This document shows, one piece after another, positions 1,257 to 52,947 of a DNA stretch of 64,000 nt; position 1 is the first letter of the stretch, and every line of letters starts with the position of its first letter. Position numbers and translations under genes: made by a program. Source of the DNA: Halanaerobiales bacterium (GTDB taxonomy: Bacteria; Bacillota; Halanaerobiia; Halanaerobiales; M55B127). The stretch is from assembly GCA_018334565.1 (NCBI GenBank), contig JAGXLU010000002.1, positions 49,466 through 113,465 of the forward strand, read 5' to 3'. The notes under the pieces are model-generated. The model saw only the letters and a list, made by a program, of their open reading frames with translations. It was not told the origin of the DNA and ran no database searches.

Positions 1257-1841
1257 ATGACCATAAATACTAAAATAAATATAATGGATACAGCATTGAA
1301 ATTATTTGCTGAGAAGGGATTTAGCGATACTTCAATTTCAGCTATTGCCGAAGAAGCGGGTATAGGTAAGGGAACTATTTATTGGTACTTTGAAAGCAAA
1401 AAAGATTTGTTTTTTTCAATTGTTGAACAAAGAGGCCAAGATTACTTTAATAAGGTTTTAAAACTTGATAATGATAGTATAGAATCAGAGCAGATAATCT
1501 ATAAGTATATAAAATATACGATTGAATTTATTGATAATAATTATGATGTTGCCAAAATGTTGATAACCAATACGGAGATAATAAATAATGAATTCAAAAA
1601 AATGATGGAACTTAAACAGCAGCAGGTTATTAGTATCTTAGAAAAGGCCCTTAAAAGAGGCCAAAAGGAAGATAAGTTCAGAGGTTTTAAAAGTAGAGAT
1701 ATTGCTTTTATGATTATGAATATAGCAAAAAGTGGGCATAATCAATTTAATTTTTCTATAGAAGGGAATATAGATCAAAAAACGCAGAAAATTTATGATT
1801 TCATCATGTATGGGTTAATTAAGGAGGAGAGGAAAACATGA
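1257..1841 (+). CDS. TetR/AcrR family transcriptional regulator
   Basis: N-terminal HTH: ALKLFAEKGF..TSISAIAEEAGIGKGTIYWYFESK. Confidence 0.95.
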   Translation: MTINTKINIMDTALKLFAEKGFSDTSISAIAEEAGIGKGTIYWYFESKKDLFFSIVEQRGQDYFNKVLKLDNDSIESEQIIYKYIKYTIEFIDNNYDVAKMLITNTEIINNEFKKMMELKQQQVISILEKALKRGQKEDKFRGFKSRDIAFMIMNIAKSGHNQFNFSIEGNIDQKTQKIYDFIMYGLIKEERKT

Positions 1842-3226
1842 AAAACAAAAGTATATTTTATATATTTATCTGCCTGTTGTTTATACTTTTATCTATAAAT
1901 TTTAACATAGCAGCGGAAGAAATATCGTTAAATGGGGCTGTAAAACTTTTAAATAAAAGCAGTTCACAGTTAGATAATGTCCAAAGAGATATTGAATCAG
2001 CGGAGATTGACTTAAAGTTAGCTGAAAAAGGTTTAGCAGCTGAAGTGACCTTACAGACTTCTTATACCAGACTGGATGAGGCCCCTCAATCACCAACTGA
2101 ATATGTATTGAGTCCAACTGGCAAAATCAACTTTCAGGGAAGTGAAGTTAATAAATATAGGTTTATACCGGTTACATTTAAAAAATTATCTCAGGATAAT
2201 TACAGGGCAAGTTTATCCATTAACAAGCCGCTATATCTGGGCGGGCAGGTAAAAAATGCTGTAAAATTAAGTGAAAAAGCTGTACAGTTGAGTAAATTAA
2301 ATTATGAAAAGACCCTAAATGAAAGGATAAATTCAATTATCCAAGCATACTTCAATGTGCTGATAAAAGACAGCCTTTTGTCGGTACAAAAGAATTCGCT
2401 TAAATTAGTTCAAGAACATTTAGATAATGTGATAAGAAATTATGAAGCGGGTATGGCCATAAAAAGTGATGTAAACGAGGTTGAAATCGAGCTAAATAAG
2501 TCTAAACAGTCTCTTTATCAGTCCGAAAATGAATTAAAAATTGCAAAAAAAAGGTTGGCAGATCTCTTAAATCTTCCAGATCTTGATTTCAGCTTAATTG
2601 AACCCAAACTGCCAGAGTTAAAAGAGGAGTTGAATTTTCATTTACAGCGAGCTTATAATAACAGTTTTGAGCTACAGAGCCTTTTATTAAAACAAAAGAT
2701 GAATGACATCAACAAGGAAATGGAAAATAAGCTTTTCAAACCATCCTTTTTTTTAAACGGCAATTATACAGTACAGGGCGATAAACTCGATTTAGATCAG
2801 GGCGATTTTAATATTACCCTAAGTGGATCTGTTACACTTTATGATGGAAATAAATCAAAATTAAACCTAAAAAAAATAAATCTAGAAGAAGCCAGCCTTA
2901 AAAATAATCAAAAACAGTTAAGAAACAATATAGAGACTGAAATAATGGCAGCTTTATATAAGATAGATGAAAACAAAAAGAAATTAAAAATAGCAGAAAA
3001 AAATAAGATACATGCTCTTGAGAACTATAATCAGGCTGTAAAGAGTTTTAATAACGGTGTGGCAAATAGTCTAGATGTATTGCGGGCAGAGACTAATCTA
3101 AATCAGATTAAGATTTCCCAAAGCCAAACATATTATCAATATATGATGAGTGTTTATAACCTGTTATATCAAACGGGGACTTTAAATAATTATTTTGAGG
3201 AAGTGATTAAAAGTGAAAATAAATAA
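1838..3226 (+). CDS. TolC-family outer membrane efflux protein
   Basis: Signal peptide, two OEP-like repeats (INKPLYLGG; VTLYDG; GVANSLDVLRAE), first gene of a tripartite efflux set. Confidence 0.85.
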   Translation: MKNKSIFYIFICLLFILLSINFNIAAEEISLNGAVKLLNKSSSQLDNVQRDIESAEIDLKLAEKGLAAEVTLQTSYTRLDEAPQSPTEYVLSPTGKINFQGSEVNKYRFIPVTFKKLSQDNYRASLSINKPLYLGGQVKNAVKLSEKAVQLSKLNYEKTLNERINSIIQAYFNVLIKDSLLSVQKNSLKLVQEHLDNVIRNYEAGMAIKSDVNEVEIELNKSKQSLYQSENELKIAKKRLADLLNLPDLDFSLIEPKLPELKEELNFHLQRAYNNSFELQSLLLKQKMNDINKEMENKLFKPSFFLNGNYTVQGDKLDLDQGDFNITLSGSVTLYDGNKSKLNLKKINLEEASLKNNQKQLRNNIETEIMAALYKIDENKKKLKIAEKNKIHALENYNQAVKSFNNGVANSLDVLRAETNLNQIKISQSQTYYQYMMSVYNLLYQTGTLNNYFEEVIKSENK

Positions 3227-4811
3227 AATAATATACATGACTTTAATTATCATATTATCTTTTAGTATATTAAGTGGTGCACAGGAGCCTGTAAAGGTAG
3301 TTCAGCCTAAAAGGGGAGATATTAATATATCAGAAACTGTTGCAGGCAAAATTGTACCTGCCAAAACGATTAATCTTCCCTCAGAGATTAATGGTGTAGT
3401 TAAAAAGATATATGTATCTATTGGCGAAAAGGTTAATCAGGGTGATAAACTTTTAGAATTTGATAAAAGTCAGATATTAATACAAAAAAAACAGTCTGAG
3501 GCAACCTTAGAAGTTGCTCAGTCCAATTTTAATCAGGTGTTGAGGGGGGCCTCTCAGGAAGATATTGAGACAGCCGAAGCCAACTATAAGCAGGCCCAAA
3601 TATCTTTGGCAAGTACTAAAAAAAGCCTGGAAATAGTCCGGGAAACTTATCAAGACAAGACCTCTTTAAAACAGCAGCTGATTAATGCTGAAATGCAACT
3701 TGCCAGTGCAGAAAAACAGCTTCAGTCTGCTGCTGAAAGAGTAAAACAAGCTGAAAAAGCCCTACAGCAGGCAGAAGTTGGGGTAAAAAAGGCTAAAAAT
3801 AACTTGACTCAGGCTAAAAACGATTATGATAGAATGGGAAAATTGTATAAGGATAATGTTATAAGTAAACAGCAGATGGAAGGGGCTAAATTACAGTTAG
3901 AAAATGCGCAATCTTCTTATGATAATGCCCACCTCCAGGTTGAAAATGCACATTTATCTATTAAAAGTGCTGAAATTGCTGAAGAGCAAGCAGAAATATC
4001 TTTAACTTCCTCTAAACAGATCTATGAGATAACTAAAAAGACCTATGACAATCCAACTCAGCTTAAACAACAGCTCCATTCAGCTGAAACACAGGTGGAG
4101 GTATCAGAAGTTAATTTGGTTATCGCAGAAACCAATCTAAAAAAGATCAAAAAAGGGGCGGATCAAGATCAAATTCAAGCAGCTCGTGCTAGTGTTAAAC
4201 AGGCTGAAGCAGGATTAGAACAGATTAATCTTCAGCTGTCTAAAACTATAATAAAAAGTCCGATAAGTGCACATATAGCATCTGTAAATACGGAAGAAAA
4301 CGAGATGGTTGCGGCAGGGACCCCTGTAGTAAATTTAGCTGTAATTGATCAACTGAACGTAGATACAACTGTCACCCCGGACTTAAGACCATATATAAAA
4401 GTGGGAGATGAAGTAGAGATAATAATAAAAAACGGGGGGAGCAAACAATATGCTGCTGTCATTAAAAATATATCGCCTATAATAAATCCTCAGAACGAAG
4501 CTTATCCTATAAAATTACAATTTATTGATGTGCCTCAAAATATTTATGCAGGTATGTTTGTGGATGTCAGATTTCAAAAAAGTAGTTCCAAAGAGGCTTT
4601 AAGTGTACCTATAGATTCAGTTTTTAATTTGTATGATGTTCCCTATCTATTTGTGGTAGAGGACGGAAAGGTAGCAAAAAGAGAACTAGAAGTTGGTTTA
4701 ATTTTTCAAGACAGAGTGGAAGTCTTAGGTGGTCTAAATGAGGATGATCAACTAATAATTCAAGGTCAGCAGAAGGTTGCAGATGGAGACACTGTTGAGG
4801 TGGTTGAATAA
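3213..4811 (+). CDS. RND periplasmic adaptor (MFP) with an unusually long coiled coil
   Basis: Lipoyl half-motifs GVVKKIYVSIGEKVNQGDKL and IKSPISAHI; C-terminal VEVLGGLNEDDQLIIQG. Confidence 0.9.
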   Translation: MKINKIIYMTLIIILSFSILSGAQEPVKVVQPKRGDINISETVAGKIVPAKTINLPSEINGVVKKIYVSIGEKVNQGDKLLEFDKSQILIQKKQSEATLEVAQSNFNQVLRGASQEDIETAEANYKQAQISLASTKKSLEIVRETYQDKTSLKQQLINAEMQLASAEKQLQSAAERVKQAEKALQQAEVGVKKAKNNLTQAKNDYDRMGKLYKDNVISKQQMEGAKLQLENAQSSYDNAHLQVENAHLSIKSAEIAEEQAEISLTSSKQIYEITKKTYDNPTQLKQQLHSAETQVEVSEVNLVIAETNLKKIKKGADQDQIQAARASVKQAEAGLEQINLQLSKTIIKSPISAHIASVNTEENEMVAAGTPVVNLAVIDQLNVDTTVTPDLRPYIKVGDEVEIIIKNGGSKQYAAVIKNISPIINPQNEAYPIKLQFIDVPQNIYAGMFVDVRFQKSSSKEALSVPIDSVFNLYDVPYLFVVEDGKVAKRELEVGLIFQDRVEVLGGLNEDDQLIIQGQQKVADGDTVEVVE

Positions 4812-7800
4812 TGAAACTATCGGATTTTTCGATCAAACGCAGTGTAACAACTGTTATGCTGATCTTATTGGTTATGATCTTGGGCTTTATTTCTCTGGAT
4901 AGGTTGAATATCGATCTACTGCCGGAAATAAATTTTCCGGGGGCAGCTGTTGTTACAACTTATGAAGGGGCAGGACCAGAGGAAATAGAATCTCTTATCA
5001 CAAAACCTCTGGAAAATTCTCTGGCAACTGTGACCAATGTGGAGACAATTAACTCTACTTCCGATAGTGGTCAGTCAACTATTATTATGGAGTTTAACTT
5101 CGGGACAGATATGGACTTTGCAGCTTTAGACATGAGAGAACAGACCGATCTAGTTTCTGACTTTTTGCCTGAAGATGCCAGCAAACCCTTAATTGTTAAG
5201 TTTGATCCCTCTATGATCCCTGTTTTACAGTTGGGAGTATACAGCGGTCAAAATTTAGCAGACTTAAAAGCAAAAGTTGAAGACAATATAATCCCTAAAT
5301 TGGAGAGGATAAAAGGGGTTGCTTCTGTTAATCTAACGGGAGGGCTTGATAGGGAAATATTGATCGAACTAGATAAAAATAAGATGGAAAATTATGGGGT
5401 GAGCTTTAATTCTGTTACGCAAAATTTACTTCTGGAAAATTTAGACCTTTCGGGTGGAGAGGTCAAAAGAGGTAATATTGAGTATATTGTAAGGGTGACT
5501 GGTAAATTTGAAAATGTTGATCAGATCCGAGAGGTTTTAATACCGACTGGTTCTGGCCAGGGGCTTGTTAAACTTAGCGATATTGCAAATGTAAAAGACA
5601 CCTACAAAGAAGTTAGCACGAGTGCCAGAGTTAACGGAGAAGAAAGTGTTGGACTAACTATACAAAAACAAACTGATTCCAATACGGTATCTGTAGCAAA
5701 TAGAGTTAGAGATGAAATAGAAGAGCTTAAAAAAGATTATAAGAACTTGAATATTGTTCCCATTGCAGATCAAGCTGAATATATAGAGCTTTCCATTAAT
5801 AGTGTTTATAGAAATGCATTGTTCGGTGGATTGCTTGCTATCATCGTACTTTTCTTATTTCTCAGAAATTTAAGGAGTACCATTATTATAGGTCTAACCA
5901 TTCCGATTTCTGTTGTGGCGACCTTTTTATTAATTTATTTTTCCGGATTAACTATCAATATTGTATCCTTGGGTGGGCTCGCTCTCGGAATCGGAATGCT
6001 TGTTGATAATTCAATTGTTGTGCTGGAAAATATATTTCGTTTTAAACAGTACGGATTAAATCGAGTAGAGGCAGCTAGCCGGGGAAGTGAAGAGGTTGGG
6101 ATGGCTATAACAGCATCTACTTTCACAACTATTGTTGTTTTTTTACCCGTAATATTTGTAGAGGGGTTAACAGCTCAAATATTTAGAGAGCTAGCTCTTA
6201 CGGTTAGTTTTTCCTTATTTGCTTCTCTGATTGTGGCTTTAACTTTAATTCCGATGCTGTCGTCAAAGATATTGAAGTTAAGCAAAAAACAGATGAATAT
6301 AGAAAAGAAAACCGGGTTAGGTTTTATCAGAAGAAATTACAAGAGATCTCTGAATTGGATTTTAAATCAGCGTTGGATAGTATTTGCTTCGATATTAATT
6401 ATAGCAGCTGTAGGTTGGTTTTTTTATCAAAAACTGGGGGCGGAGTTTTTACCTCCCTTCGATCAGGGGCAAATTACAGTCAACTTTAGTTTACCTGTTG
6501 GAACAACTCTGGATGAGACCAATAAGGTGGCAGAGGATATAGAAGAAACCCTAAAAAAAGTTCCGGAAGTTAAAACCATATTTACAAATATTGGAGTGGG
6601 AGATATGATGACCGGTTCAACGGCTTCGGAATCGGGTTCGTTTACAGTTATTTTAAAAAAATTAGCTGAGAGAGACCGTTCCACTAATCATGTTATGGAG
6701 AGCCTGCGAACTAAAATTAAAGTACCCGGTGCAGATCTTAATATTGAATCAGAGAGTGGTTTTTTAGGAGTTACTGGAGGAAAACCTATCAATATTAAAG
6801 TGGTCGGTCAAAACTTAAAAGAGCTTGAACGTCTAACTGGTCTTGTTATTAAAGAGATAAAACAGGTTGAAGGCGTTAGAGAGGTGCAAGATTCTTTTGA
6901 AGAAGGCAGGCCGGAATTTTTGATAAATATCGATAGGACAAGAGCAGCCAGGTTTGGTTTAAGAGTAAGCAGTGTGGCTAGTACAGTTAAAACCGCTATA
7001 ACCGGAGATATTGCTACGCGTTATGAAGTTGGAGGCAGTGAATATGATGTACGGGTTACTTTAAATGAAGAAAACAAAAAGAGTTTAGATCAGGTGAGAG
7101 ATATCTTGCTACCCTCACCTACAGGTGCCAAGGTTCCCCTGTCAAGGGTGGCTGATTTTGAATTATCAGAAGGGCCGAGGGAGATATTGAGGATTAACCA
7201 AGAAAGATATGGAGAGATAACTGCTTCACTTTATGAGGTGGATCTAGATACTGCTGTCAGCAATATTCAAAAAAGAATAAATGAAAATGTAGAATTTCCG
7301 GAGGAATACAGCATAAAATATGGGGGACAATTTCAGGATCTTCAGCAATCTTTCACTGACCTTTATTATGCTTTCGCTTTAGCCATTATTTTGGTATATA
7401 TGGTAATGGCTTCTCAGTTTGAGTCCCTTGTTCATCCTTTAATAATAATGTTTACTGTTCCTCTGGCCTTGGTTGGAGTGATATTGGGACTGTATATCTT
7501 TGATATAACTATCTCAGTTCCAGCGTTAATAGGCATTATAACACTGGCCGGTATAGTTGTTAATAATGCGATTGTTCTAGTTGATTATATCAATAGGTTG
7601 AGAAAAGAAGGACGTACCAAAAAGGAGGCTATTTTGGAAGCCGGTCCTATCCGAATGAGACCGATAATGATGACAGCTATGACAACAATATTAGCTTTAA
7701 TCCCCTTATCTCTTGGCATTGGGGAGGGTTCAGAATTGGAACAACCACTGGCTGTCGTAGTTATTAGTGGTCTTTTCTTCTCGACCTTTTTAACACTTTA

Positions 7801-7876
7801 TGTAATTCCGGTTCTATATTCATCACTTACAGATATAAGTGATAAAATAAAGGCAGGATTAAAGCAATTGATATAA
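4811..7876 (+). CDS. RND efflux permease (AcrB/SwrC family)
   Basis: 1021 aa; GMLVDNSIVVLENI, GIVVNNAIVLVD and RMRPIMMT motifs. Confidence 0.96.
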   Translation: MKLSDFSIKRSVTTVMLILLVMILGFISLDRLNIDLLPEINFPGAAVVTTYEGAGPEEIESLITKPLENSLATVTNVETINSTSDSGQSTIIMEFNFGTDMDFAALDMREQTDLVSDFLPEDASKPLIVKFDPSMIPVLQLGVYSGQNLADLKAKVEDNIIPKLERIKGVASVNLTGGLDREILIELDKNKMENYGVSFNSVTQNLLLENLDLSGGEVKRGNIEYIVRVTGKFENVDQIREVLIPTGSGQGLVKLSDIANVKDTYKEVSTSARVNGEESVGLTIQKQTDSNTVSVANRVRDEIEELKKDYKNLNIVPIADQAEYIELSINSVYRNALFGGLLAIIVLFLFLRNLRSTIIIGLTIPISVVATFLLIYFSGLTINIVSLGGLALGIGMLVDNSIVVLENIFRFKQYGLNRVEAASRGSEEVGMAITASTFTTIVVFLPVIFVEGLTAQIFRELALTVSFSLFASLIVALTLIPMLSSKILKLSKKQMNIEKKTGLGFIRRNYKRSLNWILNQRWIVFASILIIAAVGWFFYQKLGAEFLPPFDQGQITVNFSLPVGTTLDETNKVAEDIEETLKKVPEVKTIFTNIGVGDMMTGSTASESGSFTVILKKLAERDRSTNHVMESLRTKIKVPGADLNIESESGFLGVTGGKPINIKVVGQNLKELERLTGLVIKEIKQVEGVREVQDSFEEGRPEFLINIDRTRAARFGLRVSSVASTVKTAITGDIATRYEVGGSEYDVRVTLNEENKKSLDQVRDILLPSPTGAKVPLSRVADFELSEGPREILRINQERYGEITASLYEVDLDTAVSNIQKRINENVEFPEEYSIKYGGQFQDLQQSFTDLYYAFALAIILVYMVMASQFESLVHPLIIMFTVPLALVGVILGLYIFDITISVPALIGIITLAGIVVNNAIVLVDYINRLRKEGRTKKEAILEAGPIRMRPIMMTAMTTILALIPLSLGIGEGSELEQPLAVVVISGLFFSTFLTLYVIPVLYSSLTDISDKIKAGLKQLI

Positions 7877-8042
7877 ATGAACTAACTATTTATGGAAAAC
7901 AACCAAAAAAGAACTCAAAAAATTGTGGTTGAAATAAGTTAATAATTATATTATTGCGTTGTATTTTCATCATGATTATGTTAAAATATATAAGTGCTCA
8001 AGGAATGAATAGCGAAAAAATAATAGCTGGGGGTGACCTTTA

Positions 8043-8264
8043 ATGTTTGTATTAAAAATTATCCACCTGTTGATAGCAATTTCTGTTATTGTAGGTGTTT
8101 TGCTCCAATCAGGTAAAAGTGCTGGTATGTCTGGGGTTATTGATGGTGGAGCAAGTCAATTCTTAGGTAACAAAAGTAAAGGCTTAGATGAAAAGTTGAG
8201 TAAATTTACAACAGTAGCCGCTGTAGTATTTATGGTTACTTCATTAATTTTAGCAATTATCTAA
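8043..8264 (+). CDS. secG: Preprotein translocase subunit SecG
   Basis: [16 protein letters not shown] motif, two TM segments, position in the eno...secG...rnr-smpB locus. Confidence 0.93.
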
Positions 8265-8290
8265 AAAAGATTGAAATGGAGGGCTCTAAA

Positions 8291-10243
8291 ATGATATTTT
8301 ATACTCCTTTAGCAGGAGTAATCGCACTACTATTCGCTTTATATATGGCCTCCAAAGTCAAAAAAGCCGATATGGGTAATGATAAGATGCGGGAATTATC
8401 TTTATCTATTAATGAAGGTGCAATGGCTTTTTTGGGCCGGGAATATAGGATATTAGTGTTTTTTGTTTTAATAGTAGCACTCATCATGTTGTTTACCAGC
8501 AGTTTGGGTTGGCAGACTGCACTATCTTTTATATTGGGTGCTTTATTTTCAGGTCTAGCCGGATTTATTGGCATGCAGATTGCTACTAAATCAAATGCCA
8601 GAACAACCAATGCAGCACGTAGTTCCTTAAATGAAGCTCTACAGATTGCATTTTCAGGTGGTTCTGTGATGGGGATGACAGTTGTTGGTTTAGGTACACT
8701 TGGTTTAGGTATATTATATATCTTTTTTACAAAAAATATTGATTATATAAGGGGTTTTGCTTTTGGAGCCAGTTCAATAGCTCTTTTTGCACGTGTAGGT
8801 GGAGGAATTTATACCAAAGCTGCTGATGTAGGTGCAGATTTAGTGGGCAAAGTCGAGGCTGGTATTCCTGAAGATGATCCTCGTAATCCAGCTGTAATTG
8901 CTGATAACGTGGGAGATAATGTTGGTGATGTAGCTGGTATGGGAGCAGACCTTTTTGAATCATATGTTGGTTCCATAGTAGCCGCAATGACTCTAGGGAC
9001 TATAATAAGTGTTAATCATGTGTTAACACCTCTATTACTTGCATCGATTGGAATTATTGCCGCAATTATTGGGAGCCAAATGATTAAAGCTAAAGAAGAT
9101 GGTAATCCAGCTAAAGCATTGGAGAAAGGGTCAATCTCCAGTGGTATTTTAACAATAGTTGGAGCATTCTTCTTAATTAGATATATGATTGGAGATATGG
9201 GAGTATTTTATGCTGTAGTAGCAGGGTTGCTTGCCGGTATTTTAATTGGTAGAATTACAGAATACTATACTTCAGAACGTTTTAAACCGGTTAAGTACAT
9301 AGCAGAACAGTCAGAATCGGGTGCTGCCACTAATATAATTAGTGGTCTTTCCGTTGGAATGAGAAGTACAATGTTCCCAATTTTAGTAATTGCAGTTGTA
9401 ATTTACATTGCATATAATTTTGCCGGACTTTACGGCATTGCAATGGCTGCAGTTGGCATGTTGTCTACAACAGGGGTCACTTTATCTATTGATGCCTATG
9501 GACCAATTGCTGATAATGCAGGTGGAATTGCAGAAATGGCAGAGCTTCCGTCTGAAGTGAGAGACATTACAGATAAGCTGGACTCGGTTGGTAATACAAC
9601 AGCTGCTATTGGCAAAGGTTTTGCTATTGGTTCAGCTGCCCTAACAGCCTTATCATTATTTGCAGCTTTCTCTTCGGCAGTAAATTTAAATGGGATGAGT
9701 TTGACAAATCCCAATGTTATTATTGGACTTTTCATTGGTGCAATGTTACCATTTTTATTTTCATCTTTAACTATGAATGCTGTCGGGAAAGCGGCTTTTC
9801 AGATGATTGCAGAAGTGCGAAGACAGTTTAAAGAAATTCCAGGTATTATGGAAGGTGATACACCTCCAGATTATAAGAAATGTATAGATATTTCCACAGC
9901 AGCAGCATTAAAGCAGATGGTAATTCCCGGTTTATTAGCAGTTATTGTCCCGGTTGTAGTTGGTTTATGGAATGTTAAGACTCTGGGTGGGCTTCTGGCT
10001 GGTTCGTTGAGTTCAGGAGTTCTACTGGCCATTATGATGGCCAATGCAGGGGGGGCCTGGGATAATGCTAAAAAATATATTGAATCCGGTAACTTAGGTG
10101 GAAAGGGTACAGATACCCATGCAGCCTCAGTTGTTGGGGATACAGTAGGTGATCCCTTTAAAGATACCGCGGGACCATCACTAAATATATTAATTAAATT
10201 GATGACAATAGTATCCTTGGTATTTGCACCATTATTTATCTAA
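8291..10243 (+). CDS. hppA: Membrane-bound pyrophosphatase, K+-dependent, probably Na+-translocating
   Basis: [42 protein letters not shown] (Ala indicates K+ dependence), [20 protein letters not shown] 8291 follows a GGAGGG RBS. Confidence 0.95.
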
Positions 10244-23591: not shown

Positions 23592-23687
23592 TTTTTGACT
23601 TAATTGTATAATATAATATTATTATTACAGGCAAGTTAAAATAATTTTAAGAAAATGTTAATTTTCTCAAAAATAGGAGGGCTCACC

Positions 23688-24500
23688 ATGGGAGACCAAG
23701 AAATACTATTGAGTAAAGAAAAAGAAACCCTATTAGGACCACTATACTGTAGGGCAAGAGAAACAAAAAAAGAGGATCCCATCTTAGAAGATAAAAAAGC
23801 ACTAGAGATTTTTGAAAAAATGAAATATGACTTTTCTAAGATTAAAATGCCCGAAAAATCATGTATAACCCTGGTTATTAGAGCTGATAAAATTGATCAA
23901 TATGTAAGGGAATTTATAGCTGACAAAAAACAGGTTACTATTATCAATTTGGGAGTTGGTCTTGATAATAGATATGGCAGGATAAACCCCTGTAATACAG
24001 CTTGGTATGAACTTGATTTTTTAGAAGTAATTGAATTAAGGAAGAAATTCTATCAAAAACCTGATAACGTAGATTATATCGCTTCCTCTGTAACTGATTT
24101 GAAATGGATAAATCAAGTTAATTCAACCGGTGAGATATTAATTGTGGCGGAAGGATTGTTTATGTATCTGAAAGAAAAAAACCTTAAAGAACTATTGTTG
24201 AAACTACATAAAAGGTTTCCTGGCGCTAATCTCGTTTTTGATGCATATAGCACCTACACTGTCAAGAATATTAGCAAACATGCTTTCTTAAAAAAAACTA
24301 AAGCAGAGATATTTTGGGGCATTGATGATCCAAAACAGTTAGAAAAGTGGGGGGAAGGTATACAGTTTAAAGAAGAATGGTTTTTTACAGAGTATGAAGA
24401 TATTAAAAAATTATCTTTTTTTTATAGATTGGCATTTAAAGCAGCAGGCCTGTCTAAAATAGCCAGAAAGGCCCACCGTATTCTATATTATAAAATATAG
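23688..24500 (+). CDS. Class I SAM-dependent methyltransferase (LCM/TcmP-like)
   Basis: ETLLGPLYCRA; INLGVGLDNR; AEGLFMYL. ATG 23688 follows GGAGGG. Confidence 0.85.
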   Translation: MGDQEILLSKEKETLLGPLYCRARETKKEDPILEDKKALEIFEKMKYDFSKIKMPEKSCITLVIRADKIDQYVREFIADKKQVTIINLGVGLDNRYGRINPCNTAWYELDFLEVIELRKKFYQKPDNVDYIASSVTDLKWINQVNSTGEILIVAEGLFMYLKEKNLKELLLKLHKRFPGANLVFDAYSTYTVKNISKHAFLKKTKAEIFWGIDDPKQLEKWGEGIQFKEEWFFTEYEDIKKLSFFYRLAFKAAGLSKIARKAHRILYYKI

Positions 24501-24575: not shown

Positions 24576-25334
24576 TTACATTAATGTGCCTGCAAAGACC
24601 TGCCAAGCGAGTGCTGTTTTTGCAAATAAACTCAACACGATATACATTTTTTCACCATAGAGATAATCTTGCCAGCGTCCCACCTTTTTATATTGCAGGA
24701 GTTGATTTATAGCAAATATATTAAAGAAGATAAAGAGGGAGACAAATATTCCGATAACGAAGTTGGGTATGCCAACGGGTGATTTTGAACTGGCCGTCAA
24801 TAGTCTGATAAAAATAGTTATCCAGGGAGCTGCACCAGCTATACAGCCAAAGATAAAAGGTGACCAGACTACTTTTTCTGTATGTTGATTTAAGGATTCC
24901 ATAAGCCATCCGAAAAAAATCATCGAGGCATTGACGATAAATATTGATACTAATACACCGGCATCTGTGATACCTACTAACATAGCGATTATGATAATCA
25001 TCAGAGAACTGCTCAAAGAATATTCAATCCAGCGTGCTCGATTAATATGGTTTTTAATATTTTTTTGATACCATTTATAGGCAAAAGTAGCTACAGAGAA
25101 ATGGGCAATTGATGATAGAAACATAAAAAGGGCGACTAATATCCCCACTCGCACATCAAAGAAAGTTTCTGTACCGAATCTATCTGTGCCGGGCGGGCCC
25201 ATCATATATGAACTAGTAATAGAAATGGCAAAATCACTGCTGAGCCAGACCATAAATATAGCTTGTATTAAGTGGATAAAGCCCACAATCAAATTAAAAG
25301 ACCTTAATTTTTTAAACTTATTATTTTGAGTCAT
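24576..25334 (-). CDS. Heliorhodopsin
   Basis: LRSFNL..GFIHLIQA (TM1 His), SSIAHF (TM2 His), INRARWIEYSLSSSLM (Arg, counterion Glu), FGWLME, FNIFAINQ, Y..GEK.YIVLSLFAKTALAWQVF (Schiff-base Lys); basic N-terminus; AAGGGGG RBS. Confidence 0.95.
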   Translation of the reverse strand: MTQNNKFKKLRSFNLIVGFIHLIQAIFMVWLSSDFAISITSSYMMGPPGTDRFGTETFFDVRVGILVALFMFLSSIAHFSVATFAYKWYQKNIKNHINRARWIEYSLSSSLMIIIIAMLVGITDAGVLVSIFIVNASMIFFGWLMESLNQHTEKVVWSPFIFGCIAGAAPWITIFIRLLTASSKSPVGIPNFVIGIFVSLFIFFNIFAINQLLQYKKVGRWQDYLYGEKMYIVLSLFAKTALAWQVFAGTLM

Positions 25335-25489
25335 ACTTATAAACCCCCCTTAATTATTATTTCTATTTATATAATTAAAGATTTAATCGATAACTCCTTT
25401 TTATCAACAAAAGAAGTTGCATTTCGAGAAGGTACTTAAGTGAAGGTTTATATAGAAGATCTATTTAATTTATGTAAAGGAGAATGTAG

Positions 25490-26389
25490 ATGTTTAAGTC
25501 AAAAAACAATAAGCTAATCAGTATCACCTGGTTGATAATGATCTTTAGTTCCATATTGCCTGTCATCCTGTTCAGAGAGCTATTTAATTTAAAAACAGAT
25601 TGGATAGAACCAACTCAATTGATAATATTAATTATTTTACTGCTTGTTTCATTTTTTGCAGACAGTCTTAAAGAAATACGCTTATTCTTATTTTTAATTT
25701 TTATTTTAAAGCTAACACAAGAACTGACTTTCTATATAAAGAACTCAGAACTCTGGAGTTTATGGTTTGAATTAGAATCTCCCAATTTTATTATGTGGCT
25801 TTTAAGTGGTCAACTTCTTAGGTTAACAGCCGCAGTTATAATATTTTTAATCCTGCTTTATTTTAAAAAGAAACCAGGTAATTTCTTTATTAAGAAAGGT
25901 GATATCGATGCAGAAGTTAAGCCAATTAAATGGATATTAAAAAAACCGACAACTTGGAAGAAATTTGGTACTGTTTTTATGTTTTATATAAGTTTAGGTA
26001 CAGTAATATTTTTACTGATAGCAGGAGGTATACCTTCTTTTATTCAATTAACAGGTTTATTAAAATTATTACCGTTTATTGTATTTTTTGCAGTGATCAA
26101 TGCATTTTATGAAGAACTGGCCTATCGGGCATCTTTTCTAAGTGTACTGGAAGAGCAAATAGGAGGTCCGCAGTCCGTATACATGACTTCAGTTCTTTTT
26201 GGAATAGGGCATTTTTATGGAGTGCCTTATGGAATGATTGGTGTTTTGATGGCAACATTTTTAGGGTATCTTTTAGGCAAAAGTATGTTAGAAACACGGG
26301 GCTTTTTCTGGGCATTTTTAATACATATGGTTCAAGATATTATCATATTTTCATTTTTAGCATTAAATATGTTCAAGGTAGGTGGGTAA
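25490..26389 (+). CDS. CPBP/Abi (CAAX protease-like) intramembrane metalloprotease
   Basis: EELAYR; FGIGHF; AFLIHMVQD; multiple TM segments. Confidence 0.88.
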   Translation: MFKSKNNKLISITWLIMIFSSILPVILFRELFNLKTDWIEPTQLIILIILLLVSFFADSLKEIRLFLFLIFILKLTQELTFYIKNSELWSLWFELESPNFIMWLLSGQLLRLTAAVIIFLILLYFKKKPGNFFIKKGDIDAEVKPIKWILKKPTTWKKFGTVFMFYISLGTVIFLLIAGGIPSFIQLTGLLKLLPFIVFFAVINAFYEELAYRASFLSVLEEQIGGPQSVYMTSVLFGIGHFYGVPYGMIGVLMATFLGYLLGKSMLETRGFFWAFLIHMVQDIIIFSFLALNMFKVGG

Positions 26390-31692: not shown

Positions 31693-31721
31693 AATAGATA
31701 ATTATAAGTGAATAAAGATTA

Positions 31722-31983
31722 TTGACAGTGAACAGGATAAGTAGTTAAAATGATATTCAAAGAGAGTTGGGGTTGGTGAGAGCCCGATAATATTTATTTT
31801 AATGAAACCCACCTGGGAGTTGTAAGCTGAAAATAGTAAGCTTTGCCGGAAGTCAACCGTTATCGAGACAGGTTATATAAGTTTTTATACTTGTGTAGCT
31901 TAAATTAAGTGGACTTATAAGAAGTCAACAAGGATGGTACCGCGAGAGCAACCTCGTTCCTATTAAGGGAATGAGGTTTTTTG
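31722..31983 (+). ncRNA. T-box riboswitch, proline specifier
   Basis: Stem I features (CAGG..AGTA..AGAGAG..GGTGAGA..GAA-A-CCC-A-CCTG; specifier CCC = Pro), CCGTTA, T-box AAGGATGGTACCGCG (about 31930-44), then terminator AACCTCGTTCC..GGAATGAGGTTTTTT; upstream of proB. Confidence 0.93.
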
Positions 31984-32018: not shown

Positions 32019-32864
32019 ATGATAATATTGCGAAAAGATAAAATTAATAGGGTAGTTGTGAAAATAGGGACCAGCTGCCTTACTCATCAAAATCAAAAGC
32101 TGAACTATACGGCTATTGAACATTATTTACGTCAGCTTGTTGATCTGAAAAATTCAGGTAAGGAGGTTTTATTAGTTACTTCTGGGGCTGTGGGGGCAGG
32201 GATGGGTGAATTAAAAATAAACTTACCTTGTAAAATGGCTGAAAAACAAGGGATGGCAGCGATAGGTCAGGGATTGTTAATTTCTTTATATAATAAAATA
32301 TTAAGACAATTTGGAGAATTAGGAGGGCAGGTTTTGCTCAGTTCCAGTGATATAAATGAGAAAAAGAAATATAATAATATCTTCAATACCCTTGAAGTAC
32401 TAATCAAAAATGATATTATTCCGATCATAAATGAAAACGATACGGTAGCCACAGATGAAATTAAATTTGGTGACAATGACACACTTTCCGCTCAAGTGAG
32501 CAGTTTAATTAAGGCTGATCTATTGATATTATTAACAGATGTCGAAGGCCTTTATAATAGAGCACCCTCTTTAAAGGTCGAAGAAGATCTTAAGTTAATT
32601 AATAAGGTGGAGAAAATAACATCTGATATAGAAAAAAAGGCAGGTTGTTCAGAAAGCATTGTTGGTACGGGAGGTATGAAGACAAAACTTCAGGCAGCTA
32701 AAATTGTTAATGCAGCCGGAATAACGATGGTGATCGGTTCAGCTTATAAAAAAAATATTATATCTAAGATTATTAATATGCTGGAAGAAGAAAAAGAGTA
32801 TAAGATAGGCACTACTTTTTTGCCGGATGATAATCATCAGCAAAGCGGAACATCAAATAAATAA
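32019..32864 (+). CDS. proB: Glutamate 5-kinase (no PUA domain)
   Basis: VVVKIGTS; LVTSGAVGAG; IPIINENDTV; FGDNDTL; GTGGMKTK. Confidence 0.96.
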   Translation: MIILRKDKINRVVVKIGTSCLTHQNQKLNYTAIEHYLRQLVDLKNSGKEVLLVTSGAVGAGMGELKINLPCKMAEKQGMAAIGQGLLISLYNKILRQFGELGGQVLLSSSDINEKKKYNNIFNTLEVLIKNDIIPIINENDTVATDEIKFGDNDTLSAQVSSLIKADLLILLTDVEGLYNRAPSLKVEEDLKLINKVEKITSDIEKKAGCSESIVGTGGMKTKLQAAKIVNAAGITMVIGSAYKKNIISKIINMLEEEKEYKIGTTFLPDDNHQQSGTSNK

Positions 32865-47583: not shown

Positions 47584-48648
47584 ATGAGAAAAAGAATTAC
47601 TGTTTTATCAATGACCTTATTAACAATTGTGGTTTTAACACCAACGATTTTTGCCGATACTATTAATCTTAACTTAGAAAAAGCTTATCAGATGACCCTA
47701 GAGGATAATATTTCTTTAAAGATAGCACAAAAGAATTTAAAGAATAAAGAAATTCAGTACAAAAAAAGTAATGCACAAAATCTCTTAAATCAATCCAATT
47801 ACAGTGAAATATCAGCTGAATATAATTTATTGGCAGCTAAAAAGAATTATATAGATACCGCCAACAACCTATTGAAGCAGACTTTACAGCAGTACGGTAA
47901 TATTTTAATAACAGAAAAGAATATCGAGACATATAAAAAGCAGATCACCTTAAACAAAAAGCTGCTGGATGAAGTAAAAGCCCAGTATAATGTAGGTGAA
48001 AAAAGTCAACTGGATATATTAGATCAACAGATAAAGTTAAATGATTTTATACAGGAGAAAAATCAGTTAGAAAATGAATATGAACATTTAAAAACTAAGT
48101 TTAAACAACAGTTAGGTTTAAATAGGGAAACGAGTATCAATCTTAAAGAATTACTTGAACCGGAGTATATAAATTTAAGTGAAGAGGAAATTATAAACAG
48201 TGCATTAAATAATAACTTGAATAGTAAATTAAATGAATTAAATCTGCAGCTGGCTCAAATTGATTATAAGAAAAAGGAAGTAGTTTCTTCTTCAGAGATG
48301 GATATAAACATTGCTAAAAATATGGTAGATGTCGCTGAGTTTGAAATTGAAAAAAGCGAACAGGAAATAAAAAATCAGGCCCGCGATTTCTATAATCAGA
48401 TTAATAATACTAAAAGTAATATCGAACTCCTAAATGATAAGATCAAACAGTCCAATGATACCTATAATATTTTAAAAGAACAGAATAAATCGGGACTTAT
48501 CACAGAAAATGATCTTTATCAGGGAGAAATTTCTGTACTACAGTCTAACCTGCAGTTGTATAATGCTTATATCAACTATTATCTACAAAAACAAAGTATT
48601 GAGCAGTTTATGAACCCGGGAGCAGGGGTGTTAAGAGATGAGCAATAA
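47584..48648 (+). CDS. TolC-like protein, short form (354 aa)
   Basis: Signal peptide; LNLEKAYQMTLEDN; YNVGEKSQLDIL; KSGLITENDL OEP-type helices. Confidence 0.75.
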   Translation: MRKRITVLSMTLLTIVVLTPTIFADTINLNLEKAYQMTLEDNISLKIAQKNLKNKEIQYKKSNAQNLLNQSNYSEISAEYNLLAAKKNYIDTANNLLKQTLQQYGNILITEKNIETYKKQITLNKKLLDEVKAQYNVGEKSQLDILDQQIKLNDFIQEKNQLENEYEHLKTKFKQQLGLNRETSINLKELLEPEYINLSEEEIINSALNNNLNSKLNELNLQLAQIDYKKKEVVSSSEMDINIAKNMVDVAEFEIEKSEQEIKNQARDFYNQINNTKSNIELLNDKIKQSNDTYNILKEQNKSGLITENDLYQGEISVLQSNLQLYNAYINYYLQKQSIEQFMNPGAGVLRDEQ

Positions 48649-50029
48649 AAAACATCGGGTTATATTATCTGTAGTACTATTTATAGTTATATTATTAGCC
48701 TCTACAGCTGTGAAAGCTGCTGACTCTGATTTAAAAAAGCTGTTTACAACAGGACTTGATAATAATTTGGACATCGTCAAATTAGAAAATGAAATATCAA
48801 CCTTAAAAAGGAATTTACAATTAAACAAAGCCAGAACTGACTGGCAGGTAGATGTAGGTGTTAATAAATTAATAGTTGAAGACGATTCCCCTGTATCGAT
48901 GAACAGTGATAAAATAGATTTGTCTACCAATAAAAACTTTCTAAATGATAAAATCAATTTTAGCACAAACGCTAGCTATGATTTTGATGGAACTGAGATC
49001 ATATATGGAGTTAATCTTAATATTAATCTTTTTCCCAATATTCCATCTAAGAGTATAAAGAATTTGATGAATTTAAATAACCAGCTAAATACTAAATTAA
49101 AAGAGCTTTATAGCAAAAAAGCCAAACTTGTTAAGGACTGGCTGGAGAAATACTTACAGTTGGTTAATTTGGATGAGAACATTGATATATTAAATCAAAG
49201 GTTAAAGATAGCCAAAGATAATTATACAGAAATACAGCAGAGCATAGAAATTGATGAAGCAGGCCAGCAAAAATTGTGGGAAGCAGAACTAATATTAAAA
49301 GATGCTGAATATAATCTTACAGATAGTCATCAGCAGTTTAATCAATTAAAGAAAACCTTATTAGTTGCTCTCCAGTTAGACCAGGAAACAGAACTAATTT
49401 TAAACCGAGATGACAGTATTTTAATAAAGTTAAGAGAGTTGACAGAGGTTGTTAATATAGATAATATCGACAGGGAACAAATCCTTGCTCAAATAGTAAA
49501 AACAAGCAGTCAATTTGCAGCCAATGTTAGCCAAAATGAGTATTTAAAACAGGAACTTAAATGGTTAAAAAAGGAAGAGGCTCCAGAAATAACGCTCCAG
49601 AACAATTATAATAGCGAAAGAGAGTTTTCTGCTACACTTAATGTAAACTATAATTTATTTGATAGCGGCATACAGGATATGCAAAAAGAAAATAAGAGGC
49701 TGGAAATAGTTAATAATGAGATCACTTTTGAACAACTTTATGAACAATCAACCAACCGTTTGGATAATATAATAAACCAAATAGAATTAGCTAATTTAAA
49801 TTTAAAAAGAAAACAGTTAAAATACGATAAAGCAGTTCATAACAGTCTGATTGCCTCCCGTCAGTATGAAGCAGGTGCAGTCGAAAAAGAGGTCCTAAAA
49901 AATAGTCTATTATCTGAGAATTCATCTTTAGCAGCACTTAATGGAGCATACGATAATGTATTTTTAAATAAACTGGATATTTTAATATTGACACAACCTG
50001 ATGAAATCATCAAGGAGGTAACCAAATAA
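48638..50029 (+). CDS. TolC-family protein (463 aa)
   Basis: Signal peptide; alternating beta-strand segments; NYNLFDSG; YEAGAV. Confidence 0.75.
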   Translation: MSNKKHRVILSVVLFIVILLASTAVKAADSDLKKLFTTGLDNNLDIVKLENEISTLKRNLQLNKARTDWQVDVGVNKLIVEDDSPVSMNSDKIDLSTNKNFLNDKINFSTNASYDFDGTEIIYGVNLNINLFPNIPSKSIKNLMNLNNQLNTKLKELYSKKAKLVKDWLEKYLQLVNLDENIDILNQRLKIAKDNYTEIQQSIEIDEAGQQKLWEAELILKDAEYNLTDSHQQFNQLKKTLLVALQLDQETELILNRDDSILIKLRELTEVVNIDNIDREQILAQIVKTSSQFAANVSQNEYLKQELKWLKKEEAPEITLQNNYNSEREFSATLNVNYNLFDSGIQDMQKENKRLEIVNNEITFEQLYEQSTNRLDNIINQIELANLNLKRKQLKYDKAVHNSLIASRQYEAGAVEKEVLKNSLLSENSSLAALNGAYDNVFLNKLDILILTQPDEIIKEVTK

Positions 50030-51063
50030 TGAAAAAGATCCTGTTAATTACAGCAGCAGTTATCATAATAGCAGTAGGTGGATACTTTGGTTACAGCAGA
50101 TTTTTTGCAGAAGATTCTACAGAAAACGCCATTAAGATTACCCAACAAAATATCTATAAGGTAAAAACAGGTACTTTAAAAAATACCATCTCAGTTAGTG
50201 GTAATATATATCCAATTGAAGAACAGGGTTTAACATTTTCTACTTCTGGGAAGATAGAGTCCGTTAATATTGAAGATGGTGACAGTGTTTTAGAGGATGA
50301 TATATTGATAGAATTAAAGAATAATCAGGCACAGCTAGAGTATTTTAGAGCTGAAAATAATTATAATAATGCTAAAATAAACGGTTCACCCAATGCGGTT
50401 AAAGAAGCAGAATTGAACTATGAAATCTCTAAAGAAAACTTAGAGAATACTAAGTTAGAAGCCCCCTACTCCGGAGTAATTACAGAGCTGTTAGTGCAAA
50501 CAGGAGATTATATAAATAGTGGTCAAAGTGTGGCAACTTTAATTGACAACTCATCCTATGAAGTAAAGGCAAACATTGATGAAAGTGATTTAGCCGATTT
50601 AAAGATCGGCCAGGATGTTGAAATTAGCATGGAGGCTTTACCCGGGCAACAGCTAACAGGTAAATTAACGGAGATTAGTTCACAGGCAGTGAGCAACAGT
50701 GGGGTTGTAACAATTCCAATAACAATATTGATTGATGAAATTTTTGACTCCTTTAAACCCGGGTTATCAGCCGATATGGAGATTATAGTAGATAAAATGG
50801 AAGATCAAGTGATTATACCATTAACTGCGATCCTCTCTCAAAAGGGGAAAAAGATGGTGCAAAAAGTAGTTGATGATCAAATAGAGATGACAGAAATAGA
50901 CACGGGATTAACAGATGGATTAAAGGTAGCTGTATTGTCCGGTTTAAGTAGTGGAGATACAATTATTTTAAATATTGCAGCTACAGTTAATTCTGAGCTG
51001 TCAAACACAGGATTTATGCCTGCCGGTCGTGGAATGAACGGCCCTCCAGGTGGTGACAAATAA
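50029..51063 (+). CDS. MacA-like periplasmic adaptor
   Basis: N-terminal TM; [13 protein letters not shown]; LEAPYSGVI; IDESDL..LKIGQ. Confidence 0.9.
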
Positions 51064-51739
51064 TATGATAAATATTAAAGATATAGCAAAGACATATCAG
51101 AATGGGGAGATAGAAGTACAGGCCTTAAAAGGTGTATCTTTTGAAATAGAGGAGGGTGAGATGGTTTCGATTATGGGCCCTTCTGGTTCCGGTAAATCGA
51201 CTTTAATGAATATTTTGGGCTGTTTGGATACGGCAACTTCAGGATACTACAGTCTTAATGATCAGGATATATCACAGGCTAGTGAAAAAGAACTAGCTTA
51301 TATAAGAAACAAAGAAGTGGGTTTTGTCTTTCAACAGTTCAATCTATTAGGGCGTAAAACAGTACTTAGTAATGTTGAAGTTCCATTAATATACAGTGGA
51401 GCCAAGAAAAAAAAGAGGATAAAAAGAGCCGAAGATCTTTTAGTCAAAGTTGGTCTAGGTCACAGAATGAAGCATTATCCCAATGAAATATCAGGTGGTC
51501 AAAAGCAGAGAGTTGCAATAGCAAGGGCTTTGGCCAACAATCCTTCTCTGGTTCTGGCAGATGAGCCGACCGGTAATCTGGATACGAACACAGGTGAGGA
51601 GATCATGGACTTATTTCAGCAGTTAAACGATCAGGGCCATACCATTATACTTGTTACACATGAGCATAATATTGCTGCTTATGCTGAAAGAACGATTGAA
51701 TTGATTGACGGCCGTATTCAGCGAGATGTGGTAGCATGA
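51050..51739 (+). CDS. MacB/LolD-type ABC transporter ATP-binding protein
   Basis: GPSGSGKST; [15 protein letters not shown]; [10 protein letters not shown]. Confidence 0.96.
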
Positions 51740-52947
51740 TATTTGAAACCTTCAAAATTGCTATTCAGAGTCTATTTGCAAATAAGCTGAGAACCCTCTT
51801 ATCGATGTTAGGTATCATTATTGGAGTTGCTGCAGTGATTGCTGTGGTATCTATTGCATCAGGTTCACAGGCCCAGATCACGTCACAAATTTCTGATTTA
51901 GGTTCAAATCTAATTAATATTTCACCCGGAATAAGCAGTGGAGCAGGTGGTCAAATAAGTCGTACTTCTGCTGATATATTTACGCTTGATCTGGGTAAGC
52001 ACATTGAAGAAAATAGTCCTAATGTAAAGAGGGTTGTCCCTACAAGCAGTGCCAATGGTTTGTTGATTAAATCCAATAATAATTATAGGGCTACTATTGT
52101 GGGTACAGAGGCTGACTATCAGGTTATTAATAAATATTACCCAGCCAAAGGTATATTTTTCTCTCATTATGATGTTGATAACAGTACAGAAGTTATTGTT
52201 CTCGGGACAGATCTGGTAGAGGAATTATTTCCTGATTCAGAGCCCTTAGGACAATCAGTCAAGTTCAATATAAATAGCAGCACACAGGTTTTTAGAGTGA
52301 TCGGTGTTATGGAAGATAAAGCCAGAGGTCTGATTGGTGATTTAAACAGTCAGGCTTATATTCCGATAACAACATTTATGAATAAGGTTAGCAATAGCAA
52401 TTATGTAAGTAACTTTGTTGCCCAGGCTGTTTCCAGCGAAAATGCTACTATGGCCTTGTATGAAATCGAATATCTTTTGGATAGGTATATTTCTGAAGAG
52501 GATGAATATAATATTTTCAGCCAGGACCAATTATTGGATACAATTAATAGTGTGACAAACACTTTAAAATTAATGTTAATCGGTATCGCAGGCATATCAC
52601 TTTTAGTGGGCGGTATTGGTATTATGAATATAATGTTAGTTTCTGTTACGGAAAGAACCAGAGAAATAGGGATCAGAAAAGCCCTGGGAGCTAAAAAAAG
52701 CAATATACTTTTTCAGTTTATCATGGAGGCCTTAGCCTTAAGTAGTGTGGGCGGTATTATAGGTATTTTTTTAGGTGGTCTGGCTTCGTATTCAATATCT
52801 CAAATTGGAGGCTGGCCCTTTGTAATGTCCACACTAACAGTTTTGATAGCTTTCACATTTTCGCTTTTTGTAGGGATGTTTTTCGGAATTTATCCCGCTT
52901 ACAGGGCATCTAAATTAAATCCGGTTGATGCACTAAGTTATGAATAG
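51736..52947 (+). CDS. MacB/FtsX-type ABC transporter permease
   Basis: [15 protein letters not shown]; [28 protein letters not shown]. Confidence 0.96.

Follow-up and report, generated by a model that had tools for sequence, protein, structure and literature searches.

We analysed a 64,000-nucleotide stretch of DNA (hereafter the window; contig JAGXLU010000002.1 of the Halanaerobiales assembly GCA_018334565.1, positions 49,466 to 113,465 of the forward strand) that carries a gene for a heliorhodopsin (HeR). Our results indicated that the HeRs of the Halanaerobiales are a well-supported, multi-genome exception to the rule that these proteins occur in monoderm hosts only, an ordinary protein in an unexpected host, and the interest of the case rests on the host rather than on the protein. 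With good confidence, we favour the reading that the gene encodes a genuine, functional HeR situated in the cytoplasmic membrane of a Halanaerobiales host that has a lipopolysaccharide (LPS) outer membrane. That HeRs are absent from diderms has been regarded as an important pointer to what they do, and the Halanaerobiales clade is a direct counter-example.

The heliorhodopsin and its host genome

The window protein is an ordinary HeR that PGAP/GenBank had already named 'heliorhodopsin HeR', and the gene call is not new. It matched the Pfam profile PF18761 (Heliorhodopsin) over all 242 profile positions (E 1.1e-99; 333.1 bits, cut-off 26.7) and the NCBIfam equivalog NF038020 'heliorhodopsin HeR' at 335.6 bits (cut-off 100), and it aligned end to end with the closest solved structures, TaHeR (6is6; E 1.2e-73) and 48C12 (6su3; E 4.7e-71). 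Residues H21, H78, E104, S235 and K239 correspond in the printed alignment to positions 23, 80, 107, 237 and 241 of the 48C12-type chain, which we take to be the functional residues (the counterion E107, the His residues of helices 1 and 2, and the Schiff-base Lys). E104 lies within RWIEY, and S235 and K239 lie within SLFAK, the SxxxK motif of helix 7. The chromophore-site residues were invariant in 15/15 sequences (10/10 members of the Halanaerobiales clade A described below and 5 aligned archaeal relatives). A first, sequence-only reading of the window had described a full-length 252-aa HeR with both His residues, RWIEY and the SLFAK Lys, and every one of these details was borne out by the profiles and structure alignments. 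The hydropathy profile was compatible with seven helices, and the loop charges (13-14 Lys and Arg on the N-terminal side vs. 2 on the opposite side) predict an inside N-terminus, which is the inverted topology of the family.

Compared with known HeRs, the window protein is most readily set beside TaHeR (Thermoplasmatales archaeon SG8-52-1; 6is6, 7u55, 7clj), which shares RWxEY, SLxAK and the two His over aligned residues 6-251 and falls in the same broad tree branch as the archaeal sisters of clade A. However, the host of TaHeR is a single-membraned archaeon, and relative to TaHeR the window HeR carries five extra residues inserted in its E-F loop. The family founder 48C12 (freshwater actinobacterium; 6su3, 6su4, 6uh3, 9ljj) agrees one-to-one at the chromophore site but differs in its monoderm host and in its place in the Actinomycetota branch of the tree.

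The host assembly comprises 2.16 Mb in 94 contigs (31.9% G+C, 97% completeness, 0.12% contamination), and the HeR is located on a 117.8-kb contig (C76). No 16S rRNA gene was found in the assembly. Among species-representative genomes, the nearest HeR loci came from metagenome-assembled genomes (MAGs) labelled Halanaerobiales or Halanaerobiaceae (97, 89, 80, 79, 77, 77, 74 and 74% identity), and a further near locus (75% identity) came from a MAG labelled only Bacillota. Contig C67 carries, consecutively, genes for TamB, BamA (Omp85 with POTRA), OmpH/Skp, LpxD, LpxC, FabZ, LpxA, LpxI and LpxB, the last six being those covered by our lipid A gene test. It continues with LptF/G, an 809-aa SLH-domain protein, a porin-like protein (a weak Porin_4 match of 25.3 bits vs. 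a cut-off of 27) and an LptD_N/LptA-type protein; the SLH-domain and porin-like proteins were considered as a possible OmpM-type SLH-porin tether. This gene order is that of the outer-membrane cluster reported from diderm Firmicutes (Antunes et al. 2016; Taib et al. 2020). A secretin gene lies on contig C90, and on the HeR contig itself, which holds three OEP genes, TolC operons flank the HeR at 21 kb and 23 kb. In the 14 control genomes, the OEP, Omp85 and secretin profiles matched diderm ones only.

The sequence-only reading had proposed a diderm, anaerobic Firmicute on the strength of tripartite TolC systems and a Na+-pyrophosphatase. Two such systems and the pyrophosphatase are indeed present within the window, and a diderm Firmicute host was confirmed by BamA, TamB, Skp, LpxA/B/C/D/I, LptF/G, the LptA/D-like gene, TolC and secretin, together with nearest HeRs from Halanaerobiales. 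The BamA, Lpx and Lpt genes, on which the novelty of the case depends, are in place. The host also looks anaerobic, in that no haem-copper oxidase was detected in its genome. To our knowledge, all described Halanaerobiales are strict anaerobes. Taken jointly, the identity of the HeR gene and the diderm nature of its host are very likely correct.

An alternative that has to be considered is a binning or assembly artefact, by which the HeR of a monoderm or an archaeon from the same brine would have been misjoined to this genome. Outside the Halanaerobiales, archaeal HeRs come closest, some further MAGs of this comparison look mislabelled ('Gammaproteobacteria', 'Pleurocapsa'), and Bulzu et al. 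2021 (PMC8612252) traced a Myxococcota HeR case to contamination. Nonetheless, the TolC operons share the 118-kb contig with the HeR, and the composition is uniform: the tetranucleotide correlation with the rest of the genome was r 0.997 for C76 and r 0.995 for C67 (36 contigs of at least 20 kb), and the 3-kb segment around the HeR (r 0.972, 33% G+C) was not deviant and formed no island. Moreover, HeRs are found in 13 genomes of the order, two of which (G063 and G046) also hold secretin on the same long contigs, the G046 protein is identical to the RefSeq protein of a cultured strain, and the syntenic copy at locus L007 stems from another MAG. We consider such an artefact extremely unlikely.

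Distribution, ancestry and the monoderm rule

Our survey covered 72 Halanaerobiales species genomes (48 of them high-quality), including the host (G000). HeR matches were obtained in 13/72 genomes (8/48 high-quality) representing 5/22 genus codes and 3/8 family codes. With the host excluded, they occurred in 6/12 genomes of family f1, 2/4 of f3 and 4/17 of f6, and in none of f2, f4, f5, f7 and f8. LpxC was present in 62/72 genomes, including 12/13 of those with a HeR. An outer-membrane gene and the HeR share one contig in three cases: the host, G063 (a 6-contig assembly with the HeR 78 kb from a secretin fragment on a 963-kb contig) and G046 (the HeR 200 kb from a full secretin gene on a 427-kb contig). 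The G046 HeR is identical to RefSeq WP_270453829.1, 'heliorhodopsin HeR [Halonatronomonas betaini]', and this species is listed as a cultured Halanaerobiales member in PMC10536098. With one HeR apparently from a cultured strain, the question becomes testable at the bench. The HeR of G069 is a pseudogene (L105 7260-8020, G069:C12), with an in-frame TAG at the B-C loop Trp and, towards the C-terminus, a frameshift through which helix 7 is lost. In the same genus, this pseudogene was seen to lie between an EAL-HDOD gene (upstream) and the flagellar P-ring gene flgI.

To place these proteins, we built two trees: a quick one with IQ-TREE from 83 rows (the window protein, 79 of the 80 nearest loci and three others, with pseudogene L016 excluded) and a careful one from 46 rows (45 of the 83 plus an Isachenkonia protein), from which near-duplicates and long-branch rows (L072, L073, L085, L037, L033, L077 and L086 among them) had been dropped. 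Ten Halanaerobiales HeRs from three family-level groups formed one clade (clade A) in both trees, with a support of 100/98 in the 46-row tree. Clade A was sister to four Thermoplasmata HeRs (96/93) within an enclosing clade (98/96) whose remaining members were Hadarchaeota, Thermococci and one sequence labelled Paceibacterota. Since the clade A HeRs and those of halophilic archaea descend from a recent common ancestor, the tree, which had been proposed as a test of lateral transfer, implies that the gene would have crossed between domains, either into or out of the Halanaerobiales. The direction was left unsettled by the approximately unbiased (AU) test, under which a constrained grouping of the archaeal sequences stayed acceptable (p 0.12).

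A second lineage (clade B) comprises the HeRs of G046 and G050, which are 45% identical to clade A and join the Isachenkonia alkalipeptolytica HeR at a support of 100/100; the G046 HeR (L096, G046:C10) belongs to the same 90%-identity cluster. Isachenkonia is presumably a monoderm member of the Clostridia, and from the sequences this grouping looks like a recent exchange between diderm and monoderm soda-lake Firmicutes. Clade A HeRs are under strong purifying selection, with dN/dS of 0.04-0.12 in 9/13 printed pairs (saturation of dS precluded an estimate for the remaining four). Horizontal transfer within genus g1 was not upheld as an explanation for the split of its six HeRs in the tree, as their constrained monophyly was not rejected (AU p 0.08) and vertical descent is thus not significantly contradicted. 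Elsewhere in the trees (L043, L047, L057 and L021), 'Gammaproteobacteria' and 'Pleurocapsa' contigs clustered tightly with Patescibacteria and Chloroflexota HeRs, and the 'Paceibacterota'-labelled HeR was nearly identical to a Thermococci HeR. Such oddly labelled contigs are probably mis-binned or mislabelled MAG records and a source of false diderm HeRs.

In Bulzu et al. 2021 (PMC8612252), which covers 469 HeRs, 24,706 genomes were scanned, Halanaerobiales were named among the diderm Firmicutes lineages, no conclusive diderm HeR case was accepted, and the question was declared settled. The monoderm-only rule has been repeated in PMC9601134, and the diderm cases that Kovalev et al. 2020 (PMC7049168) claimed from database labels were disputed by Bulzu et al. 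The sequence-only reading had assumed that a few diderm exceptions were known. This needs to be corrected, as Bulzu et al. accept none as conclusive, and the host is thus more exceptional than had been claimed. In our full-text literature searches, which did not cover the supplementary tables of Bulzu et al., the diderm nature of HeR hosts appears to be unreported. Flores-Uribe et al. 2019 reportedly based the amphiphile-transport idea on the absence of HeRs from diderms. A 2025 preprint (10.1101/2025.11.27.691015) speaks of a 'central mystery', has outer membranes block exogenous xanthophylls and builds a functional model on the rule.

Because the whole Halanaerobiales clade and the lineage assigned to H. 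betaini keep the HeR under selection, the monoderm-only rule would be false and an LPS outer membrane would be no hindrance to HeR function, a generalisation for and against which we find the case evenly balanced. If it is true, the amphiphile-transport and xanthophyll-antenna hypotheses, which assume direct access to the medium, will have to be dropped or restricted, and the occurrence of HeRs would be explained by descent and by gene exchange among Terrabacteria and archaea rather than by the architecture of the envelope. Hypersaline waters are rich in carotenoids, a circumstance that we counted in favour of light harvesting or transport by the window HeR itself. Such roles have been put forward in the form of an exogenous xanthophyll antenna or an amphiphilic substrate (10.1101/2025.11.27.691015; Flores-Uribe et al. 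2019), and lateral fenestrations are reported for 91.3% of HeRs in the preprint. However, these models predict no HeR behind an LPS outer membrane, and here a whole clade under selection has one; we judge them quite unlikely to apply.

Retinal supply, partners and proposed function

As the sequence-only reading had noted, there are no blh or crt genes in the window, and our genome-wide search (PF15461, PF03055, TIGR02734) was likewise negative. The host genome yielded no match to Blh/Brp (PF15461) or to the RPE65-type oxygenase (PF03055), and CrtI (TIGR02734) retrieved only N-terminal FAD-fold stubs from it (at most 41 bits vs. a cut-off of 238). No type-1 rhodopsin was found in the host genome, and 1/72 Halanaerobiales genomes had a match. 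This sole match (G011:C65:154045-154686, E 5e-51) was observed in a 4.0-Mb MAG with ~4% contamination and may be foreign. A lone SQS_PSY gene on C76 (35829-36824), 38 kb upstream of the HeR, is squalene-synthase-like. It is flanked by a glucodextranase-type SLH-like module and a diacylglycerol kinase, and no isoprenoid genes adjoin it.

Because no retinal-synthesis genes were found, the organism would have to obtain retinal externally. Scavenging across an outer membrane had been proposed from the sequence; the scavenging part of this proposal stands, since no retinal pathway was found, whereas the membrane as a barrier does not. Intact E. coli supplied with 7 µM all-trans retinal in the culture formed holo-HeR (PMC9769723), which argues that an outer membrane is no real obstacle to retinal. 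HeRs of strictly anaerobic Firmicutes without evident retinal synthesis have already been described in PMC8612252, namely the MORN-HeRs of monoderm lineages. These resemble the window HeR in their anaerobic hosts and the lack of evident retinal synthesis but are fused to a MORN part and have histidine kinase genes nearby, whereas the window HeR is a bare seven-helix protein without a kinase neighbour, in a diderm host.

It is also conceivable that the protein has a light-independent, retinal-free role. This would be in line with an anaerobic host whose genome has no Blh, CCD or CrtI and with the lack of a Blh match among the 72 genomes (control genomes lacked one too at this threshold). Nonetheless, neither the Schiff-base Lys nor the counterion Glu nor either His varies in the 10/10 clade A members and the 5 archaeal relatives, a conservation that a role without retinal would not maintain, and a light-dependent photolyase is kept in 13/13 HeR genomes. 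A retinal-free role is very unlikely in our view.

By analogy with characterised HeRs, whose slow photocycle includes a long-lived O state, we lean somewhat towards a photosensor that uses scavenged retinal, pumps no ions, cycles slowly and modulates a partner. The protein would bind all-trans retinal that the host scavenges from the surrounding hypersaline community, a step proposed because no synthesis genes exist. The HeR would then serve as a slow-cycling light sensor without ion pumping and would modulate an unlinked cytoplasmic or membrane partner by direct contact, as in other HeRs. Published HeR mechanisms consist in partner regulation through direct binding. In PMC9769723, the HeR of Trichococcus flocculiformis (TfHeR) binds a class II cyclobutane pyrimidine dimer (CPD) photolyase directly and raises its repair activity ~3-fold, and this binding requires R162 and K227 in the cytoplasmic loops of TfHeR. 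TfHeR is likewise a Firmicute HeR from a genome with a class II CPD photolyase; it differs in that its HeR and photolyase form one operon in a monoderm host, whereas in the window genome the two genes lie on separate contigs (C76 and C31).

The best candidate for such a partner would be the class II CPD photolyase of the host, which shares no operon with the HeR. This enzyme scored 512 bits against TIGR00591 phr2, slightly below the cut-off of 550, and had its best PDB matches in 8oet (E 3e-98) and 2xry (2.7e-97). Each of these entries bears the name deoxyribodipyrimidine photo-lyase, and we take them to be class II enzymes. Photolyase was present in 13/13 HeR genomes vs. 40/59 others, and its presence in all HeR genomes argues that these strict anaerobes meet light. 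A prediction of the HeR-photolyase complex gave no answer (score 0.00, mark 0.32) and speaks neither for nor against binding. On the analogy with TfHeR, the photolyase may be the partner, although we regard this as doubtful.

Neighbouring genes were compared all-against-all as open reading frames within ~6 kb of the HeR at 19 loci. This comparison in relatives, which the sequence-only reading had suggested, turned up no partner gene: L007 alone is syntenic, and a conserved operon partner was rejected, as nothing but the HeR itself is common across the Halanaerobiales clade. Since no neighbour is conserved, a partner, if any, would be unlinked. Even HeRs that are 89% identical lie in different surroundings, and one copy adjoins a transposase.

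A partner other than the photolyase could be sought in cyclic di-GMP (c-di-GMP) signalling or in the divergently transcribed CPBP protease next to the window HeR. For c-di-GMP, a MASE3-GAF-GGDEF gene (6853-8631) lies 94 nt downstream of the HeR at L008, an HD-GYP-type gene (7609-8661) lies downstream at L010, and an EAL-HDOD gene lies upstream of pseudogene L105. However, the MASE3-GGDEF link was rejected: MASE3 is absent from the host genome and was found in 6/13 HeR genomes vs. 16/59 others. The CPBP protease adjoins a HeR elsewhere only at L007, the closest relative locus. We consider partners of this kind unlikely. In family f3, a flavodoxin gene on the same strand ends 9 nt (L014 1140-1670) or 119 nt (L103 2689-3192) before the HeR start, and this pair may be a lineage-specific two-gene operon. 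A flavodoxin neighbour common to these loci and the window was rejected, as the flavodoxin-like gene of the window shows no similarity to that of L014/L103 (E 3.5).

The HeR clade is transcribed-looking. The HeR coding sequence was covered by contigs 90-99% alike in four salt-lake metatranscriptome RNA libraries from two studies, and a single 975-nt RNA contig spans 24376-25342, with the flanking genes covered patchily. A 2.8-kb stretch around the HeR was found in DNA runs with salt lake and soil metagenome labels; its parts without RNA-contig cover (e.g., 25386-25761) prove nothing. At least half of the sampled words were contained in 11 DNA runs, and this DNA may have come from one of them.

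Our preference for a functional HeR behind an LPS outer membrane needs to be interpreted with caution, considering several points that weigh against it. Retinal binding, a photocycle and the outer membrane in this organism are all predicted from genes. One HeR genome (G067, 92% complete) gave no match to LpxC, BamA or secretin, and the AU test (p 0.12) does not secure the nesting of clade A inside the archaeal clade. The Blh result across the order (0/72) is alone no proof of absence, given that control genomes were without a match as well. The photolyase is unlinked and frequent in HeR-less genomes, and the genomes are kin, so that its co-occurrence with the HeR is weak; the neighbourhood of the window recurs in 1/11 other Halanaerobiales loci (L007). 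Finally, the RNA contigs are assembled and belong to a close relative; they show presence in RNA libraries but tell neither the strand nor the ends nor the level of a transcript, and carry-over of DNA is possible.

Local gene context and minor observations

The features of the window that bear on the HeR and its host are compiled in Table 1. The ribosome-binding site (RBS) predicted in the sequence-only reading is there as a G-rich site, and AGGAGG-type counterparts occupy the equivalent position at 11 related HeR loci. Both neighbours of the HeR are encoded on the opposite strand, so that the gene is monocistronic on the minus strand, also as proposed. A consensus scan around the HeR gave 5 promoter-like sites vs. 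a mean of 7.0 in shuffled sequence, a consensus scan downstream of the gene found no terminator, and no upstream motif common to the HeR loci was seen by eye.

Table 1 Coordinates of features in the 64,000-nucleotide window
Feature	Position	Strand	Remarks
TolC (OEP) - HlyD adaptor - AcrB RND (resistance-nodulation-division) pump	1838..7876	+	On the HeR contig; with TetR from 1257
Sodium-translocating pyrophosphatase	8276..10243	+	Context only
LCM-type S-adenosylmethionine (SAM) methyltransferase	23655..24500	+	Convergent HeR neighbour; profile match
Heliorhodopsin (HeR) gene	24576..25334	-	252 aa, ATG start, intact; H21, H78, E104, S235, K239
G-rich RBS (AGGGGGG)	25343..25350	-	9-10 nt upstream of the HeR ATG; read from the sequence
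Rce1-like/CPBP intramembrane protease (PF02517)	25490..26389	+	Divergent HeR neighbour
Two OEP/TolC-family genes - HlyD adaptor - MacB-type ABC (ATP-binding cassette) ATPase and permease	47584..52947	+	Second tripartite system, on the HeR contig

The two OEP/TolC genes of the second tripartite system (47584-50029, +) overlap and encode 354 and 463 aa, and the same pair was found in the relatives G064:C19, G004:C15 and G046:C14. The window also holds a T-box leader (RF00230, 137 bits) at 31719-31964 (+), upstream of an amino-acid-kinase gene at 32019-32864.

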